DNA of 8,544 nt, from positions 1-8,544 of IMG/VR virus record IMGVR_UViG_648276648_000007; one strand, written 5' to 3'. This DNA is from a virus. Its lineage: Duplodnaviria > Heunggongvirae > Uroviricota > Caudoviricetes. Positions 1 to 8,544 of the stretch are shown here, in pieces. The notes beneath the pieces are model-generated. The model was not told where the DNA came from. It did not search any database and worked only from the letters and a program-made list of their open reading frames with translations. Within the stretch, counting starts at the first letter, position 1, and each line of letters opens with the position of its first letter. The position numbers were made by a program, and so were the translations under genes.

Positions 1-429
1 CATAACAAACCCATTAAATTCACAATTATTCATGGCGTATCCGCCAGCTGAGGAATAAGTAGTTATCACAACTCGTGAGGCTAATTCATCGGTACTGCCT
101 CCAGATCGGCGAAAGACTATAGGATACCACTTACCGCTTACTGCATTTGCAGGCGCTGAAAAAGTGTATTTTCGCATCCCTTTTTTATTGTCTATTTCGC
201 TTTTGCTGTAAACGTCCAGATCTTTAGGAGTCAACGTAATGTCAGCCGAACCATCGAACCTGACGCCATTAATGTTTATGGCTGTTTTTAATTTCGTCGC
301 GGTGTCGGCGTTCCCTGTCAGCGCCCCGGTGATCCCGCCGTTGAAAGTCTGGCGCGCACTCCATGTGTTAGCCGTGCTCAACAGGGGGATCTTTTCACCG
401 CTGGTACCGAGTTCTCTTAAACCAAGGTT
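1..429 (-). CDS. Phage tail-fibre C-terminal variable cassette (Sv'-type), partial; 143 codons from the crossover site to the window edge, no start codon of its own
   Basis: Minus-strand translation from 429 down to 1 has no stop and reads NLGLRELGTSGEKIPLLSTANTWSARQTFNGGITGALTGNADTATKLKTAININGVRFDGSADITLTPKDLDVYSKSEIDNKKG..., a pattern I recognise from P1 S / Mu S / P2 H-type tail fibres. It begins at the inversion site beside the invertase. Absent from the ORF track because it has no ATG and leaves the window. Confidence 0.8.
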
Positions 430-437
430 TAGGATTG
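412..437. other. Site-specific inversion crossover site (cix/gix-like): 12-bp imperfect inverted repeats around a 2-bp core
   Basis: TTCTCTTAAACC-AA-GGTTTAGGATTG. The inner 6 bp of each arm (TAAACC / GGTTTA) are a perfect inverted repeat, 8 of 12 arm positions match, and the centre is an AA dinucleotide, as in Gin/Cin/Hin/Pin sites. It lies at the junction of the tail-fibre cassette and the invertase gene. Confidence 0.65.
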
Positions 438-989
438 AAATGATGACGCAGGAAACTTTTTATAAAGCGTGGAAACAGCAACATCATAGATGATTGCAAC
501 CTGCTTACGGGGGATGCCATTCTCCAGCAATCGACGCATTTGCTGCCATGTTTCTTCTTGGTATTTAGGCCGACGGCCTCCTATTCGACCTTCTGCGCGA
601 GCTGCATCAAGTCCAGCGCGTGTACGTTCAACGATAAGCTCACGTTCCATTTCTGCCAGCGCCCCCATTACGTGAAAGAAAAAGCGCCCCATTGGTGTAC
701 TGGTGTCGATGGAGTCAGTGAGACTCCGGAAGTTAATTCCTCTGTCACGCAGCTCCTCCACCAGCACAACCAAGTGACGCATGCTGCGCCCAAGACGATC
801 TAACTTCCATACGACCAGGGTGTCACCTCTGGAAAGCATACGCAAAACCTTTCTTAGCCCAGGGCGTTCAGCCTTTTTGCCGCTCGCCTTATCCTCAAAA
901 ATTAGCTCACATCCTGCGCTTTCAAGGGCATTTCGTTGTAAAGCAGTGTTTTGTTCATTTGTTGATACGCGTACATAGCCTATTAGCAT
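429..989 (-). CDS. cin: Serine recombinase, DNA invertase of the Cin/Gin/Pin/Hin family (186 aa)
   Basis: The ORF translation begins MLIGYVRVSTNEQNTALQRNAL and contains VVWKLDRLGRSMRHL, GINFRSLTDSIDTSTPMGRFFFHVMGALAEMERELI and C-terminal IPRKQVAIIYDVAVSTLYKKF, near-identical in pattern to Cin/Gin/Pin/Hin. Catalytic Ser is S9 in YVRVST. The symbol cin is chosen from the P1-like neighbourhood; pin or gin orthology cannot be excluded without alignment. Confidence 0.95.
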   Translation of the reverse strand: MLIGYVRVSTNEQNTALQRNALESAGCELIFEDKASGKKAERPGLRKVLRMLSRGDTLVVWKLDRLGRSMRHLVVLVEELRDRGINFRSLTDSIDTSTPMGRFFFHVMGALAEMERELIVERTRAGLDAARAEGRIGGRRPKYQEETWQQMRRLLENGIPRKQVAIIYDVAVSTLYKKFPASSFQS

Positions 990-1116
990 ATTTTCTGCTC
1001 ACTATCGTTATTTATAGCAAGCTGCGGATTTTAATTAACAAAAACCAGTATGTGTGGAAATCACAAAGTACATACCGTTTCCCAATGATATTTAATTCAC
1101 TATTAAGGAAATAGTT
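990..1116. promoter_or_regulatory. Divergent intergenic promoter region between the invertase gene (leftward) and the lyd/dar-type operon (rightward)
   Basis: 127 bp AT-rich spacer between two divergently oriented start codons; AGGA sits 7 nt upstream of the ATG at 1117. Exact -10/-35 elements were not assigned. Confidence 0.4.
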
Positions 1117-1398
1117 ATGTGTGATTTCACAATAATGCTCCTCTCCATCCTTGGCGGGGTGCATTCGTTTCTGAATGGGGTTCGTGAAAAACGTTACGAA
1201 GCGTCATGCAGGCAATTGATGGCCGAGTGTATTGCTGCCGTACTTGCAGGCTTTATAGGCATGTATTTCGCGGAATATAAGGGTATGGATGAAAGTCTTC
1301 AGAATTGCGTGACTATTATTTGCAGCATCAATAACAGGCTCATTCTTGAAAAGTTACAAAGGATTATCGATTCGCACCTCAATAGAAATGCCTCTTAA
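1117..1398 (+). CDS. Small two-TM membrane protein, holin-like (LydC-like position), 93 aa
   Basis: Two hydrophobic segments (IMLLSILGGVHSFL and IAAVLAGFIGMYF) followed by a charged C-terminal tail; AGGA RBS 7 nt upstream; same architecture as the next ORF. Confidence 0.6.
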   Translation: MCDFTIMLLSILGGVHSFLNGVREKRYEASCRQLMAECIAAVLAGFIGMYFAEYKGMDESLQNCVTIICSINNRLILEKLQRIIDSHLNRNAS

Positions 1399-1465
1399 GC
1401 AACAAATGACCGGTTGAGAAGTTACTTTGCATACCATTACCTCCTGACAACGTAGGAGGGAACTT

Positions 1466-1795
1466 GTGCTTGACACACAGGAATTAGCTCCAGTTGCTAT
1501 TGCGCTCCTGCTTTCAGTAATTGGTGGGATAGGCACGTTCCTGATGGATGTCCGAGACGGTCGCCAGTCTGGCAATTTGTTAGGATTGGTTACGGAGATC
1601 TTTGTTGCAGTGACAGCTGGCGCGGTGGCGTACCTATTGGGGCAACACGAGGGCTGGGAGTTATCAATTACGTACTTAATGGTAACGATAGCCAGCAATA
1701 ACGGTCATGAGGTGATTTCAGGGATGAAACGAGTGAATATCGATAGCATTCTGAATGTTCTTACAAGTTTGGTGAAAAAGGGAGGCGGGAAATGA
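1466..1795 (+). CDS. lydA: Two-TM holin-like protein (LydA-type), 109 aa, GTG start
   Basis: Strong RBS AGGAGG at 1454-1459, 6 nt before GTG at 1466. Two TM segments (LAPVAIALLLSVIGGIGTFLMDV and IFVAVTAGAVAYLLG) separated by a short charged loop. The symbol rests on position next to cin and on size, as I recall the P1 order cin-lydC-lydA-lydB. Confidence 0.6.
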   Translation: MLDTQELAPVAIALLLSVIGGIGTFLMDVRDGRQSGNLLGLVTEIFVAVTAGAVAYLLGQHEGWELSITYLMVTIASNNGHEVISGMKRVNIDSILNVLTSLVKKGGGK

Positions 1796-2235
1796 TTGGC
1801 TGGGGTGTATGCGTTCTTGCGTTAGCCTTAGCCGATCGCTATTTGCTAAAACGCAAGGACATCACGCACTTAGAACTTGGTGATGTGGAAATTAAACCGG
1901 GTTTCATCCGGGTGCCGTTCAAATACCGGTCTAAATTCCCGTTTTTGCGCGGCGCAACGGTCAGATATTGGATCCGCGATGTTCAGAAGCCGACGACAGT
2001 GATTGAAGGCGAACAACGTTGTCTGACGTCGGCTGAACAGGGCGAAAACAGTGAATGGTTGTACATACCCACTGAATATATGGGTAAAGGAGAGCGACTG
2101 TGGCATTTCAACGTCATGGTTACGCATGGCGACTCGTTCATTAACCCGTTGTATCGGATTTTCCCTGTTACTCAGCAAATCCGCAGAAGTTACGTAATAA
2201 ATCTCGCACAGGATGTGTCAGATGACGAAAAATAA
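1792..2235 (+). CDS. lydB: 147-aa protein with N-terminal hydrophobic anchor or signal sequence, candidate antiholin (LydB-like)
   Basis: ATG at 1792 overlaps the stop of the previous gene (ATGA coupling); GGAGG RBS at 1781-1785; N-terminus MIGWGVCVLALALA is hydrophobic. Assignment is by synteny and size only. Confidence 0.5.
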   Translation: MIGWGVCVLALALADRYLLKRKDITHLELGDVEIKPGFIRVPFKYRSKFPFLRGATVRYWIRDVQKPTTVIEGEQRCLTSAEQGENSEWLYIPTEYMGKGERLWHFNVMVTHGDSFINPLYRIFPVTQQIRRSYVINLAQDVSDDEK

Positions 2236-2824
2236 GTATGCAACGGTCGATTTTGACCAGGTTAATGAAAAGGGGCTGAAATCCCTTATCGCGGCGATCA
2301 ATAAAACCGGGGTTACGGTAATTGAGGTTGACTCCAGCAACCGCGCAACAACGAAAGATGGCGTTAAAGTTAAAACCGCAAAGCTGGTTCTTAACGACGG
2401 ACAAATTCTTGCCATACAGGTAAACGATACTGGCGATATATCGTCTGTGAAGCTGAATGGAAAAGCTATTCCTAACGCTCAGTCGCCGGATATCAAGACG
2501 CTTGGTACCGTCATGGGGCAAGCGGCCAGCAAAAACTCCGCAAAATTCCAGAAATCACTGATCGCCAAAGCGAAACGTGTTGCCAATCCGGTAGACAAGA
2601 AACCGGCAGTAAAATCCAACTTTCAGCGCCTGCAAGAGGCAAAACAGCGGAATGCTCAGGTGGTTGCCGCTTATAAGTCCGCGCAGAATTCGGTGTCTTT
2701 CAATCAACAGCAGATCACTGATTTGCGGGCGAAGCTGGATACGGAGACGGGCCGACTCAATAACGAAAAGGCACGGAATGGCGAACTCAAACGTCGTCTT
2801 AAGCAACTGAAAGCAGGAAATTAA
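2213..2824 (+). CDS. hdf: Hdf-like protein (homolog of DarA fragment), about 200 aa
   Basis: Overlaps the end of the upstream gene. Carries the block ...LNDGQILAIQV...KNSAKFQK followed by a Lys/Gln-rich coiled-coil tail, which recurs in the next, larger gene. An alternative start at ATG 2222 has better spacing to AGGA at 2209-2212. Confidence 0.7.
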   Translation: MCQMTKNKYATVDFDQVNEKGLKSLIAAINKTGVTVIEVDSSNRATTKDGVKVKTAKLVLNDGQILAIQVNDTGDISSVKLNGKAIPNAQSPDIKTLGTVMGQAASKNSAKFQKSLIAKAKRVANPVDKKPAVKSNFQRLQEAKQRNAQVVAAYKSAQNSVSFNQQQITDLRAKLDTETGRLNNEKARNGELKRRLKQLKAGN

Positions 2825-2825
2825 C

Positions 2826-4745
2826 ATGGAACAGTTCAATATCAATAAAGGGGTGACGATCAAGCCTGGGCTTGACGTACTTCCCCCGCCAGTGACTGAT
2901 GATGAATATCGCGCATTAATGGCCGGAGAGGACCGCTATCTGATGACGGAATCCAACACCCTGGAGGAAATCGAGGCTACGTTCTTCTATGACACGCCGA
3001 TCCACTGGTGTGCTACGGATTTACTGGAGGCGATTAGTTCTACTCGTTTGCAGTTACACCGGACCATGCAGGCATTTGTCCGGGCATTGAACCAGAAGCT
3101 GAATGGTACCGGAATCTCTGCGGGGAGTGATAAAACGGGGGATGTGGCCCAGAGCGGCGCGCGAGCGATCGGCGGCGCTGAAATTGGCCGGGCACGTAAC
3201 GTTAACGGGCTGCCGGTCCTGCCAGCCATTATCCCGCTCAGTGATGGTCAGACTATCAGCATTCTGTTTCATAGCCCGACAGCGGAAAACCGGATCACCA
3301 ATAGCGATACGCTGGTTGCTTTCCAGTTCTTACTGAATAAAAAAGACGTTACTCACACCGTTGCTCCGATGAGTGGACGTGATATGACGCTGGCGCAGGT
3401 CACCATGAAACTTGCCAACCTTGCAGAGAAAAACTCGGCAAAATTCCAGCGTGCGCAGAAGAAGAAAAAAGCCCTGGTTGATGAAATAACCCAACTACAG
3501 GCTGACAGTGACCAGAAAGAGGATGCCATGAGCGACCTCGCGGATCAGGTGGCAGCGGTAGAAGGCCAGAAGGCAGATCTGGAGCAGAAAATTAACGCAG
3601 TTGCTTCGGAAGCGGATTCTCTTTATCAAGAAAATGAGCGTTTGCAGGCGGAGATTGATCAGCTCAATCGCACTGGTGGGCGCGATACCATTGCTCCAGC
3701 GGGGATGACTGGTGGGCACTCTCTCGCGCTGACGGATCGCCTTGCCAGTATCAAAAATCGTATGCATATGGACGGGGAAGCGACGCTCAGTAATGGTGCA
3801 TTAATGAAGCAATTCATTGGGGACGGCGAAGGGTATATCCAGTTAACCGATCCGGATGGCAGCGTGTACATGATCAAGGCTAAATCCATACAGGGTGTGG
3901 ACATGACAGATGCGATCGGCAAGCTGTTTAAAGCCTATAAAGCGGGTAATGTATCGGAATATCTGGTCCAACCAGAAGAACCTAAACCGGAAAACGTCGA
4001 ACCTGAACCAGTGGAGGATACCGGCAGCTCTTCGCCTGAACCAGAAGTCTCTGTAGGCGCATATCGATATGCCCTGCAAATGCGTCCGGCGGCCCCTGGC
4101 GCGATACCTGAAGGTAACAAAGCAATTCTGCCGCGCCCTGATAAAGGTGACCCGTATTATGAATACGCGCGCTACGGCATTGTTACTTACGATACCCCGC
4201 TTTCTGATCAGCAAATGAGTGAGTACGACCTGAAGTTATTGCCTCGCGAGGATTCTTTCGACTTCCTGGCGAAGACACTTACTAATGGTCCGTTTGGCAA
4301 ATATGCACAAAAAGCTCTGGAGCTGGCCACCAGCTCACCAGACGAGTTCCGCGTAATGCTGAAAACTCAGTTTCAAAAAACTTTCCCCAATATTGCGTTT
4401 CCGGGGGGCGCTGGCACCGAGAAAATGGTGCAGAGCATGATCAATGCATTGCAGGCCGAAGTCGGTGAGATTACTCAGCCAGAACCGGCCCCGGCACAGC
4501 CTGATGAAACGGTTAGCGAAGCAGATGCAGAGGCTAATAAAGCCATTGAATATCTCAATAGCGTGATGGATATGCAAAGCACTGACATGGCGGAGATCCG
4601 TAATGCCCGGGGTAATGCCCGGGAAGCGATTGCAGCCCTTCAGGCTGCCGGGCGTTTTGAGGAAAACGAAGAGCTGGTTAATGGCGCTGCTCGCCACCTG
4701 GCTGATCTGCTGGTAGCAATCCAGAAAGCGGGGGTAGTGGCATGA
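2826..4745 (+). CDS. darA: DarA-like capsid-associated anti-restriction protein, 639 aa
   Basis: Starts 1 nt after the hdf-like stop with AGGA 7 nt upstream. Multi-domain: N-terminal region, the Hdf-shared block around KNSAKFQR (nt 3429-3449), a long coiled coil (about nt 3450-3670) and two Pro/Glu-rich linkers. Size and position match what I recall for P1 DarA. Confidence 0.7.
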   Translation: MEQFNINKGVTIKPGLDVLPPPVTDDEYRALMAGEDRYLMTESNTLEEIEATFFYDTPIHWCATDLLEAISSTRLQLHRTMQAFVRALNQKLNGTGISAGSDKTGDVAQSGARAIGGAEIGRARNVNGLPVLPAIIPLSDGQTISILFHSPTAENRITNSDTLVAFQFLLNKKDVTHTVAPMSGRDMTLAQVTMKLANLAEKNSAKFQRAQKKKKALVDEITQLQADSDQKEDAMSDLADQVAAVEGQKADLEQKINAVASEADSLYQENERLQAEIDQLNRTGGRDTIAPAGMTGGHSLALTDRLASIKNRMHMDGEATLSNGALMKQFIGDGEGYIQLTDPDGSVYMIKAKSIQGVDMTDAIGKLFKAYKAGNVSEYLVQPEEPKPENVEPEPVEDTGSSSPEPEVSVGAYRYALQMRPAAPGAIPEGNKAILPRPDKGDPYYEYARYGIVTYDTPLSDQQMSEYDLKLLPREDSFDFLAKTLTNGPFGKYAQKALELATSSPDEFRVMLKTQFQKTFPNIAFPGGAGTEKMVQSMINALQAEVGEITQPEPAPAQPDETVSEADAEANKAIEYLNSVMDMQSTDMAEIRNARGNAREAIAALQAAGRFEENEELVNGAARHLADLLVAIQKAGVVA

Positions 4746-5107
4746 CACTATCAGCTATTGAGTTAATGGATCTCAGCGATAAGTTGGATGCTCTGATGTC
4801 CAAAGCGGCGACCGCGAGTGGCATGGAGTTGCTGGATATCAGCGATGAAATTGACCAGATCATGCAACAGATGGGGTACGGCGCATCCGGCAGCGGTAGT
4901 GGCGAGGAAAAACAACCTTCGGTGCATGATGGTGTGCCAAAACTGGTTGCTGATTTCCTGGCTGATAAATTCGTCGATCAGAGCACCGATGCATTTATCG
5001 GTACGTTGCAGGACTTAAGTCAATATGTTGGCACATACATCGACCTGGACCAGGTTAAACAGCACACGGCGGCATGGATAGCCGCCAACATTAAAGAGGC
5101 GGTATAA
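4742..5107 (+). CDS. ddrA: Small acidic protein, DdrA-like, 121 aa
   Basis: ATGA start/stop overlap with the darA-like gene; Asp/Glu-rich with a GASGSGSGEE linker; size and position match my recollection of P1 ddrA. Confidence 0.6.
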   Translation: MTLSAIELMDLSDKLDALMSKAATASGMELLDISDEIDQIMQQMGYGASGSGSGEEKQPSVHDGVPKLVADFLADKFVDQSTDAFIGTLQDLSQYVGTYIDLDQVKQHTAAWIAANIKEAV

Positions 5108-5119
5108 GGCGTAACAGGG

Positions 5120-6808
5120 ATGAGTTTAAACGATCAGATAGTTATGGCCACCAGCAGCGGATACAACGGTGTTGCGCCATATACCAGCTTGCTATTACAT
5201 CGGGCATCCGGCATCAAAGACATTATTCATCTGATCAGGCTGCTTTCCCGAACAGATCCCCAGGATGAACAGCTTGTACAAGTGCTTGCGCATTTTGTTC
5301 GAATGCCTGTTGCCGACGTGAATAAATGGTGCCGATTATTCGGTATCAGCAATTCGTTACTTCGCGGCTTGTTAAATCACGCATCCTCCCTTGGGCGCGA
5401 TGGCTTTGACGAGATAGCGCAGGCGATAAAAAACGGAGATATGCCACCAGCTATTGACTGGTTTTCCATTCGCCCAACCAGGGTGAAAGCATTCCTTAGC
5501 GCGGCGCATTCGGCATCACCATTGGCAGAAATGGTTCAGAGGTTGTCGCTCATATTCACAGACCATACCGCGTTGGGTGATCTGACTCTGGACGAGATGA
5601 AAGAAGCCTCCATTCAGTGGGCCGATCAACAAAATGAGGTTAACTCAGACTTCTTGCCAGCATTCAGGAAGGCCGTTATTAAAGCGGATGATGCCCGTGG
5701 AATTCTGAAGGCATTTAAGGCATTGCAAAGTCGGGTTAATAAACATGTCGGTGATATCGATGGGGTAACGGCGGAAGGCAGGGATATCCTTAAAGAGCAC
5801 GGCATAACGCCAGAGTTTATTGATGAGATCAGGACTGATATGCAGCGTGAGGTCGTATCGTCCCTGCAAATTGTAGCCAGAGCGTTGGCGGATGCTAATC
5901 CGAAGAGTGCGGCCATTGTTAACCGGGTTATTGGTGATATTGAAGCATCGGAGGGCATGGGGGCGCTGAAACTCTTCCTTTCGCGAGCGTTTAATCCTAA
6001 CGGCAATATTCTCCCTGGCATTATTGGTGAGGCTAAAAGGTATGTCAGTGAAGAAGAACTTGAGCAGCTTGACCAACTACTTAAGCGATTCTCATATAAC
6101 CCGCAGACACGCTGGCAAATGAATCAGCGAAGAATGGGTTCGGTCCACGAGAAAGTGTTATCTGCCATGAACAGTGCGATCGCAAACTCATCCGTATCTG
6201 AAGAAAAAGCTCTTGAGTGGGCCGACTCTTTTATCACGGAAGAAGTGGAAGAAGCCCGCGCTGGACAGAATGGTGGGATAGACCTGCGCAAGGAACTTGC
6301 TGATATTTATCGCCTGACCGGCGGTAAAATTTCGACCTTATCAAAGGTGGTTCACCACCAGGGAAGGGCATATGCAAATCTTAATGGTGTTGTTGCTGTC
6401 AATTTGAACGATGAAAATGCAAGTGCACTGTGGCACGAGCTGGGTCATCATCTTGAGTACAGTAACCCTGGTTTGTTAGAGAAAGCCCGGTCATTCCTGA
6501 AGGCCAATGTTGAAGGGGATAAGCCATCTTTCGTTAATATCGGTGGGCGTGGCAAGCCTGAATGGTGCTTCAGATCTCGATTGAGTAATATTTATATGGC
6601 GAAGGTATACCCGCCAGCCTCAGTAAGTAACACCGGGAAAATTCGGCAGAAATCACCGACTATTTCCAAAACGTCAGCAACGGAAGTATTCTCTATGGCT
6701 CTTCAGTTGTATCATGACAAAGAGGCCGCTGCCGCATCACTGATGAATGGTGACGGATTGCTGGAACTGTTATTAGGTGTGGCAAAGGAGCTAAATAATG
6801 CAGATTAA
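5120..6808 (+). CDS. Uncharacterised 562-aa protein with a single HExxH zincin-type motif (HELGH, residues 439-443); occupies the ddrB position
   Basis: Long clean ORF in the operon's codon context; WHELGHHLEY is encoded at nt 6431-6460; the rest is largely helical and charged. I cannot confirm similarity to P1 DdrB from memory, and I recall DdrB as considerably larger. Confidence 0.85.
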   Translation: MSLNDQIVMATSSGYNGVAPYTSLLLHRASGIKDIIHLIRLLSRTDPQDEQLVQVLAHFVRMPVADVNKWCRLFGISNSLLRGLLNHASSLGRDGFDEIAQAIKNGDMPPAIDWFSIRPTRVKAFLSAAHSASPLAEMVQRLSLIFTDHTALGDLTLDEMKEASIQWADQQNEVNSDFLPAFRKAVIKADDARGILKAFKALQSRVNKHVGDIDGVTAEGRDILKEHGITPEFIDEIRTDMQREVVSSLQIVARALADANPKSAAIVNRVIGDIEASEGMGALKLFLSRAFNPNGNILPGIIGEAKRYVSEEELEQLDQLLKRFSYNPQTRWQMNQRRMGSVHEKVLSAMNSAIANSSVSEEKALEWADSFITEEVEEARAGQNGGIDLRKELADIYRLTGGKISTLSKVVHHQGRAYANLNGVVAVNLNDENASALWHELGHHLEYSNPGLLEKARSFLKANVEGDKPSFVNIGGRGKPEWCFRSRLSNIYMAKVYPPASVSNTGKIRQKSPTISKTSATEVFSMALQLYHDKEAAAASLMNGDGLLELLLGVAKELNNAD

Positions 6809-7109
6809 AATCGCAGCGCCATTAGGCGGAGATGCCATTATCGAATTTGATGATAATGAAGAAGTTTCCGGGCGTTTAAGCATTATCTCCGGTGACATTA
6901 CCGAGGACATGATCGCTGAAGCCATAGCTGGGGCAAATCCCAATAGCTATATGGGATTCGTTAACACCCTTGATGCTCCCGCAAGTGATGTTCTCCGAAC
7001 GCTGCATCTTTACGCTGGCTGGTTTGTTGATTGGCCAGCAGTAGATGGTGGCGATGATGACGACGACGATGATGATTTTGGTGATCATGTAGACCAGATC
7101 GTATATTAA
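6798..7109 (+). CDS. Small, very acidic protein, 103 aa, with a C-terminal run of eight Asp
   Basis: AGGAG RBS at 6786-6790, 7 nt before the ATG; overlaps the end of the 562-aa gene by 11 nt; eight consecutive Asp codons at 7053-7076; roughly 25 acidic against 3 Lys/Arg residues. Confidence 0.8.
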   Translation: MQIKIAAPLGGDAIIEFDDNEEVSGRLSIISGDITEDMIAEAIAGANPNSYMGFVNTLDAPASDVLRTLHLYAGWFVDWPAVDGGDDDDDDDDFGDHVDQIVY

Positions 7110-7175
7110 CTCCCTGATTGTGCAAAAATAATCTGTTCTGATATGTTAATTGTGTACTTAAAGTAAACGCGTAGT

Positions 7176-7203
7176 GGCTTGCTTTAGGTTATGGAAGCAA
7201 GCC
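7176..7203 (+). terminator. Perfect 9-bp stem / 10-nt loop hairpin 67 nt downstream of the operon's last stop codon; possible terminator
   Basis: GGCTTGCTT-taggttatgg-AAGCAAGCC. It is not followed by a clean T-run, so intrinsic terminator function is uncertain. Confidence 0.3.
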
Positions 7204-7722
7204 GTTACCTAATATGTTAGATCAAAAAAAATTAATTTTTGCGTTTCGCTCACCACATATTGAACACTTTAGTCGATCTTTTAATTCTTCCAGAGTCAAT
7301 CCTGAAGCTACATATTGTTTAATATCTCTTCTTTATTGCATATTCAGAGGGTAAAGATATACACATACTAAAATGAATTAGCTTAGCTCGTTATTAATCA
7401 GGATTCGATGAGACCGCTCCATTTTAGGGAATAACATTTATAACTAAAACACATCGTCTTTAACTCTCACAATATAGATTCAATTTAATACCCAATCGGC
7501 AGTAATTAATTTGATTCTAATTTTTAAGTAGATTTCAAGTCTACATCCATTAAAGCCCTGTTAATTAACAGGCTATCTATTTTTGACAGTTATTATTTTT
7601 GTGATAATTTAATTGTTTGTCTTTTGTGCTTATTTTTGATTGTTTTTTGATCTATTTTGTCAATTTTTATTCTGTGAATTGAGTTTTTTCTAATAGTCCA
7701 TTGGGTTTTCAAGGCTATTATT

Positions 7723-7738
7723 TGTGATTTTGATCACA
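7723..7738. promoter_or_regulatory. Consensus CRP (cAMP receptor protein) binding site
   Basis: TGTGA-TTTTGA-TCACA matches the TGTGA-N6-TCACA consensus exactly, with arms extendable to 7 bp (TTTGTGA / TCACAAA, 7721-7740). It lies about 120 bp upstream of the porin ATG, near a candidate -35 TTGAAA (7767-7772) and -10 ATAAAC (7789-7794). Confidence 0.5.
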
Positions 7739-7850
7739 AAAATACCTTGATTTTTATTTGCAAAACTTGAAACACGAATCCAAAAAAGATAAACATTTGT
7801 CCGCAGTGACTTCTTTTCTACTGAAAAGTTCAATCTAAAGGGCAAAAAAA

Positions 7851-8192
7851 ATGAAAAAAATCACAGTGGCACTCTCTGCGGTTGCAGCATCTGTCCTGAT
7901 GGCAATGTCTGCGCAAGCAGCTGAAATCTACAACAAAGACGGTAATAAACTGGATCTGTACGGCAAAGTTAACGCAGAACATTACTTCTCTTCTTCAGCT
8001 AGTGATGACGGAGATAAGACTTATGCTCGTCTGGGATTCAAAGGTGAAACTCAGATTAATGACCAGTTAACCGGTTTTGGTCAGTGGGAGTACGAATTTA
8101 AAGGTAACCGTACTGAATCTGAGGGCTCTGATAAAGATAAAACTCGTCTTGCATTTGCTGGCCTCCGTTTTGCTGATTATGGTTCAATCGAC
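7851..8192 (+). pseudogene. nmpC: General porin of the NmpC/OmpD/Lc (OmpC/OmpF superfamily) type; 5' fragment of 114 codons, interrupted by IS26
   Basis: Signal peptide [23 protein letters not shown], then the classic mature porin N-terminus [17 protein letters not shown]...[26 protein letters not shown]...[17 protein letters not shown]. The frame then runs 8 codons into IS26 (GTVANSRW) and stops. The symbol is tentative: the signal peptide most resembles NmpC/Lc as I remember them. Confidence 0.85.
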
Positions 8193-8206
8193 GGCACTGT
8201 TGCAAA
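8193..8206. repeat. IS26 14-bp terminal inverted repeat (IRL)
   Basis: GGCACTGTTGCAAA at the exact point where the porin reading frame is broken. Confidence 0.9.
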
Positions 8207-8255
8207 TAGTCGGTGGTGATAAACTTATCATCCCCTTTTGCTGATGGAGCTGCAC

Positions 8256-8544
8256 ATGAACCCATTCAAAGGCCGGCATTTTCAGCGTGACATCATTCTG
8301 TGGGCCGTACGCTGGTACTGCAAATACGGCATCAGTTACCGTGAGCTGCAGGAGATGCTGGCTGAACGCGGAGTGAATGTCGATCACTCCACGATTTACC
8401 GCTGGGTTCAGCGTTATGCGCCTGAAATGGAAAAACGGCTGCGCTGGTACTGGCGTAACCCTTCCGATCTTTGCCCGTGGCACATGGATGAAACCTACGT
8501 GAAGGTCAATGGCCGCTGGGCGTATCTGTACCGGCCGTCGACAG
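8256..8544 (+). CDS. tnpA: IS26 transposase Tnp26 (DDE, IS6 family), N-terminal 96 codons, truncated by the window edge
   Basis: Translation MNPFKGRHFQRDIILWAVRWYCKYGISYRELQEMLAERGVNVDHSTIYRWVQRYAPEMEKRLRWYWRNPSDLCPWHMDETYVKVNGRWAYLYR matches Tnp26. The last codons read PST rather than the AVDS I recall (see findings). Confidence 0.9.
   Translation, partial: MNPFKGRHFQRDIILWAVRWYCKYGISYRELQEMLAERGVNVDHSTIYRWVQRYAPEMEKRLRWYWRNPSDLCPWHMDETYVKVNGRWAYLYRPST

Follow-up and report, generated by a model that had tools for sequence, protein, structure and literature searches.

Positions 1–437 of the window (the whole 8,544-nt stretch of DNA analysed here) are very probably the end, next to cin, of an invertible C segment of the P1 type, carried by a P1-like (Punavirus, IncY) phage-plasmid. 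The switch itself, composed of cin, cixL and the C segment, is already known from phage P1, where the cin/cix system has been characterised since the early 1980s, and it is the content of the cassette that is non-reference. In P1, the C segment, the sites cixL and cixR, the invertase Cin and the alternative S and S' fibres have been described; Cin dimers at cixL and cixR assemble with the enhancer and exchange strands at a 2-bp core, expression is limited to whichever module adjoins Sc, the constant part, and the late promoter, and the two fibres lead to different host ranges (bioRxiv 10.1101/2022.07.24.501295; PMC6906374). Below, we describe the crossover site, the invertase gene and the tail-fibre cassette found in the window, then the remainder of the segment in near-identical plasmids, and finally the mosaic origin of the cassette.

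Results

Placement of the window on a P1-like phage-plasmid

By megablast, the window matches P1-like IncY phage-plasmids, chiefly from Escherichia and in fewer cases from Salmonella. Positions 1–1100 are 100% identical to four plasmid records (both CP063732.1 and NZ_CP030784.2 show this identity), and a whole-window megablast returned two plasmid records, CP063732.1 and NZ_CP122864.1, in which positions 1–8192 are matched at 100% identity. Phage P1 is 96.6% identical to positions 237–1100, and the genes to the right of cixL follow the order known from P1, namely cin-lydC-lydA-lydB-hdf-darA-ddrA. The left flank of the switch, beyond position 1, was taken from near-identical records and not from the window's own molecule; the main one is the locus of CP063732.1 (L001), in which base 1 of the window corresponds to position 9001. 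Annotations of P1 were transferred from the corresponding locus of NC_005856 (L002) by subtracting 6764 from its coordinates.

Further to the right, identity with the nearest plasmids ends exactly at position 8193, which is the left end of an IS26 element (terminal repeat GGCACTGTTGCAAA; transposase ATG at 8255) that fills the window from there to its end (8193–8544) and interrupts an OmpC/PhoE-like porin gene (start at 7851) after about 114 codons. The combination of this IS26 junction with the same tail-fibre cassette was found in no record when plasmids and complete E. coli genomes were searched by megablast. The ddrB region (5120–7109) also differs from that of P1, in that a 562-aa open reading frame, for which NCBIfam gave no match, is followed by an overlapping 103-aa open reading frame with a poly-Asp tail. 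In NZ_CP030784.2, gldA is inserted after ddrA.

The crossover site cixL and the invertase gene cin

The 26-bp Cin crossover site, cixL, lies at 412–437 and reads TTCTCTTAAACC-AA-GGTTTAGGATTG, base for base the annotated cixL of P1. Its half-sites occupy 412–423 and 426–437, with the core dinucleotide AA at 424–425, and the site forms an imperfect dyad whose 12-bp halves agree at 8 of 12 positions. In its surroundings, positions 396–450, the sequence is CACCGCTGGTACCGAG TTCTCTTAAACC AA GGTTTAGGATTG AAATGATGACGCA, and identity with P1 is complete over 38 nt (the 26 bp and 6 nt on each side). The site is present in a single copy in the window, and none would be expected by chance (200 dinucleotide-preserving shuffles, up to 3 mismatches allowed). 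The P1 record NC_005856 labels a 'recombination site cixL' and a 'crossover site within cixL, between nt 32224/32225; left C-segment boundary', in addition to a Cin binding region and a cin coding sequence ending four bases past the crossover; transferred to the window, these annotations place cixL at 415–434, the crossover at 424/425 and cin at 429–989. The point of strand exchange thus lies between 424 and 425, at the very dinucleotide that the first-pass annotation had proposed as the core of the site. A plus-strand ATG open reading frame of 84 aa (239–493) spans cixL; being antisense to both the tail-fibre frame and the 3' end of cin, and annotated in no record that we examined, it is most likely spurious.

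The gene to the right of the core is cin, which encodes a serine DNA invertase of 186 aa on the minus strand (429–989). The protein contains the Pfam domains Resolvase (E 5.7e-51) and HTH_7 (E 2.6e-18) and is identical to P1 Cin at 184 of 186 residues (99%), and among solved structures it is closest to 3uj3 (E 2.9e-88), a chain bearing the name DNA-invertase, which we take to be Mu Gin. As had been read from the sequence beforehand, the stop codon of the invertase (TAA, 429–431) and its last two sense codons (432–437) all fall inside the right arm of cixL (426–437), a placement supported both by the coordinates of the open reading frame and by the P1 annotation. This overlap arises because cin directly abuts the segment, and since the stop codon sits in the outer half-site, outside the exchange point, inversion never alters Cin and the overlap is neutral to it.

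Host Fis acts at a recombinational enhancer in P1 and in the invertases of the Din family. In P1, the 'enhancer of Cin-mediated C-segment inversion' is annotated as 72 bp (L002 7664–7735), which correspond to 900–971 in the 5' part of cin in the window and are conserved there at 70 of 72 positions, so that this stretch is a probable functional enhancer of Cin inversion. The putative sigma-70 promoters P1cin and P2cin, which are predictions in P1 as well (L002 7792–7824 and 7849–7875), map to the region 1028–1111 on the minus strand, and the window is identical to P1 across these columns. Our own scan of positions 1–1200 for promoters and terminators returned nothing bearing on the switch above the expectation from shuffled sequence, and on the minus strand it showed nothing resembling a terminator from the cin stop down to position 282.

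The tail-fibre cassette in the window

The 5' part of a variable tail-fibre cassette, its first ~141 codons, occupies positions 1–424 on the minus strand as an open frame identical to CP063732.1 (L001 9001–9424). It reads leftwards past the edge of the window, and in the identical records the full cassette comprises 632 codons. The translation (...ISILNLGLRELGTSGEKIPLLSTANTWSARQTFNGG...) is tail-fibre-like. The frame had been described as lacking a start codon and as beginning at the core of the crossover site. The former holds, as no in-frame ATG occurs before position 177, whereas the open frame does not begin at the core but extends another 35 nt, being open from 459 to base 1; these extra 35 nt are the antisense of the cin 3' end. 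An in-frame TAA at 460–462 closes the frame upstream, so that no ATG-initiated gene further upstream runs into it. It is the identity with the expressed fibre that starts at the core: in the expressed S, ...AVIQY is followed by LGLRELGTSGEK, and in the silent copy ...ISILN is followed by the same LGLRELGTSGEK.

The sole start-type codon before position 177 is a TTG at 381, which lacks a clear Shine-Dalgarno sequence. The NCBI annotation of CP063732.1 and of NZ_CP030784.2 nevertheless calls a coding sequence from this TTG, and automatic annotation of the identical records thus carries a free-standing 617-aa coding sequence (L001 7528–9381). We regard this as probably an artefact to which invertible cassettes give rise in annotation. 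Lacking both a constant N-terminus and an ATG and ribosome-binding site of its own, the cin-proximal cassette would be silent in the orientation seen in the window, as judged from the behaviour of the P1 segment.

The partner site and the layout of the segment

A second crossover site, to the left of position 1, had been predicted from the window, and in CP063732.1 we indeed find cixR at L001 4862–4887 (TTATCCAATACC TT GGTTTAAGAGAA; in full TTATCCAATACCTTGGTTTAAGAGAA), identical to the annotated cixR of P1. It agrees with the reverse complement of cixL at 22 of 26 positions, and the two sites are inverted relative to each other with their exchange points 4,550 bp apart. An exact P1 cixR is present in L001, L003 and L004. 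When the 19.1-kb locus was scanned with the conserved cix core (AAACCNNGGTTT, at most 1 mismatch; ~0.9 matches expected by chance), cixR and cixL were the only matches within the segment, and two further matches lie outside it, in lydB/hdf and in ddrB. The segment is bounded by an inverted repeat of 199 nt, 97% complementary, which a repeat search located at L001 4864–5062 and 9237–9435. Its right arm is at 237–435 of the window and encodes the first ~65 aa common to both cassettes.

The expressed cassette, which had likewise been expected upstream of the window, is part of an ATG-initiated tail-fibre gene S of 1,046 aa in CP063732.1, and cixR falls in codon 528 of this gene. The encoded protein has Phage_fiber_2 repeats and a gp37_C domain. 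Beyond S come two Caudo_TAP chaperone genes in opposed orientation and then the cassette that enters the window, such that each of the two cassettes has a chaperone gene of its own. The U/U'-type assembly genes and the constant fibre part, for which a leftward extension had been proposed as a check, are thus both in place in this record. NZ_CP030784.2 shows the same layout, including a cixR that matches P1 exactly.

Inversion in silico and in sequenced plasmids

Strand exchange was carried out in silico between 4874/4875 and 9424/9425 of L001. The resulting inversion places the cassette of the window in frame behind the 527 constant codons, giving a fibre of 1,159 aa, as expected from the proposed fusion to a constant N-terminus, and leaves the cin open reading frame unchanged. 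The inverted state had also been predicted to exist, and it is found in other sequenced plasmids. In NZ_CP074369.1, the segment has the opposite orientation to that in CP063732.1, matching its reverse complement over 4,550 bp with 2 mismatches and lying between colinear flanks (1 mismatch in 1,500 bp on the left), and the annotated fibre, 1,159 aa long, is identical to the predicted inversion product. A search of the plasmid collection with the predicted 824-bp junction of Sc and this cassette gave 12 records at a coverage of at least 80%, with 100% identity in one (NZ_CP074369.1) and 99.9% in another, and the junction of cin and the cassette, i.e., the orientation of the window, gave 20 plasmid records at the same coverage. 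Both states of the switch thus occur in nature at comparable frequency. These are comparisons between different plasmids, and the opposite orientations across isolates reflect past inversion in the lineage, as an active invertase predicts.

Mosaic content of the cassette

The match of the fibre part to P1 is confined to the portion within the inverted repeat, from position 237 rightwards; to the left, positions 1–236 (minus strand) are specific to this cassette, mosaic in character and without a P1 match. Positions 1–213 show 93.9% nucleotide identity to a hypothetical gene of Escherichia phage vB_EcoS_HdSG1, the mid-part of the cassette is similar to fibres from a number of Escherichia and Yersinia phages, and the last 167 aa of the 632-aa cassette share 91% identity with the tip of the tail fibre in P2-like phages (P2-H-like). 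Beyond the repeat (L001 7528–9236), the silent cassette shows no relationship to P1 Sv for the greater part of its length, nor to Sv' past the first 65 aa. The cassette is the product of ordinary mosaic exchange of tail-fibre modules, and it is found in dozens of deposited plasmids. Its P2-like tip suggests a P2-like receptor specificity, and we consider it somewhat probable that the mosaic cassette equips these P1-like plasmids with a third receptor specificity, P2-like and absent from reference P1.

Discussion

How the switch is expected to operate

From knowledge of P1 we infer catalysis by Cin, its dependence on Fis and the enhancer, the silence of the cassette and a change of host range upon inversion. 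Cin, expressed from a gene that reads towards the segment, would bind the two inverted 26-bp sites, cixL at the border of cin and cixR about 4.55 kb further left, inside the tail-fibre gene S. Aided by the enhancer within cin and by host Fis, it would exchange strands at the 2-bp core and thereby flip the segment. The segment consists of two opposed modules, each made up of a variable fibre C-terminus and its own assembly chaperone, and only the module beside Sc and the late promoter would be translated. The module that enters the window adjoins cin, without a constant N-terminus, an ATG or a ribosome-binding site, and would therefore represent the silent host-range alternative.

Comparison with related inversion systems

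Both sites are base-identical to those of P1. As in P1, the exchange falls at the same dinucleotide and cixL includes the cin stop, and the flanking genes are R and S on one side and lydC, lydA, lydB, hdf, darA and ddrA on the other. The differences are found within the segment, which measures 4,550 bp here and 4,256 bp in P1, and in the inverted repeat, which has 199 nt (65 shared aa) here as opposed to ~650 nt (218 shared aa) in P1; the repeat is short because one cassette was replaced close to the crossover site. In the orientation of the window, Sc is joined to a cassette that shares 94% identity with P1 Sv' and is accompanied by a chaperone sharing 84% with U'. The silent cassette, on the other hand, holds the position of P1 Sv/U and not that of Sv'/U', and its chaperone is 77% identical to P1 U, from which it follows that the window corresponds to the C(−) state of P1. 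The initial proposal of a P1/Mu-type segment is therefore accurate for the architecture, the sites and Cin, all of which match P1, but needs amending for the cassette, which is not the P1 Sv' and occupies the Sv/U position.

The G segment of phage Mu (gin, gixL/gixR, Sc/Sv/U/U'/Sv') is similar in that the invertase gene abuts the segment, the sites have 26 bp with a 2-bp core, the constant N-terminus of the fibre is encoded outside the segment and two opposed Sv+U modules are found within it; moreover, parts of the C segment are noted in the P1 annotation to be 92–94% identical to Mu at the nucleotide level. Mu, however, is a transposable phage whereas the window belongs to a phage-plasmid, and the sites and the invertase of the window are the P1 alleles. 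Like Cin, Salmonella Hin/hix and Pin of e14 are members of the Din family, whose serine invertases use 26-bp sites and depend on an enhancer and on Fis. Hin differs in flipping a promoter and not coding cassettes, and the flagellin genes are absent here. In the Min system of p15B, six crossover sites serve to shuffle many cassette pieces, whereas the cix-core scan of the L001 segment revealed two sites only. Min is otherwise comparable, as it combines a related invertase with related tail-fibre cassettes on a P1-related plasmid (P1 annotation; PMC6906374).

Alternative readings

This kinship raises the question of whether the cassette of the window could be one of many alternatives in a multi-site shufflon of the p15B Min type, given that Min is a close relative of Cin, that some P1-like plasmids have Min-like invertases (PMC6906374) and that the P1 annotation notes homology to p15B around cin. 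The invertase at hand is 99% identical to Cin, though, and no more than two fibre C-termini and two chaperones are encoded between cixR and cixL; with only these two sites in the segment by the core scan, we rejected this reading, to which we assign a practically negligible probability. A different concern is that the locus might be a frozen relic of a P1-type switch whose partner site or constant part has been lost, for example by an IS26 rearrangement, leaving the cassette as a dead fragment. An IS26 end is indeed present in the window, where it interrupts the porin gene, IS26-mediated deletion of cin and the C segment has been described in P1-like plasmids (PMC6906374), and the left part of the switch is known from near-identical records only. 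Yet cin, cixL and the enhancer are undamaged and hardly differ from those of P1, the cassette frame is uninterrupted over the 424 bases present and over 632 codons in the identical records, and both records that are identical over 1–8192 match right up to the IS26 junction, with a complete switch in CP063732.1, the one that we examined. A relic is thus improbable.

The cassette might also be thought of as a stand-alone gene that starts at the TTG at 381 and is transcribed by read-through from the cin promoters, yielding a fibre fragment without the constant N-terminus. PGAP-type coding sequences starting from TTG in CP063732.1 and NZ_CP030784.2 would fit this view, as would the shared orientation of cin and the cassette with no minus-strand terminator-like site between them. 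The absence of an ATG and of a clear Shine-Dalgarno sequence before the TTG speaks against it, however, as does the fact that the same sequence is internal to the 1,159-aa fibre in the inverted state; the product would moreover miss the 527-aa constant part, and the P1 annotation gives the cin-proximal variable part as expressed only in the other orientation. We consider such a gene extremely unlikely. Partial expression of the cassette, in which read-through from cin and initiation at TTG 381 would supply lysogens with a free fibre fragment bearing the P2-H-like tip, is very unlikely too; if it did occur, the free receptor-binding fragment might serve as a decoy or play a part in superinfection exclusion. 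We therefore retain the reading of the left end of the window as the cin-proximal part of an invertible C segment of the P1 type.

Implications

A first reading of the switch made without database searches proved accurate, and the window can now be placed on a P1-like phage-plasmid with a host-range switch that appears intact. The case is also a reminder that automatic annotation miscalls a silent cassette as a stand-alone gene. One of the two fibre tips of this switch is a P2-like mosaic rather than the K-12-type Sv of P1. The identity of the tips bears on predicting which hosts such phage-plasmids reach by infection and transduction, and plasmids of this kind often carry resistance genes beside IS26.
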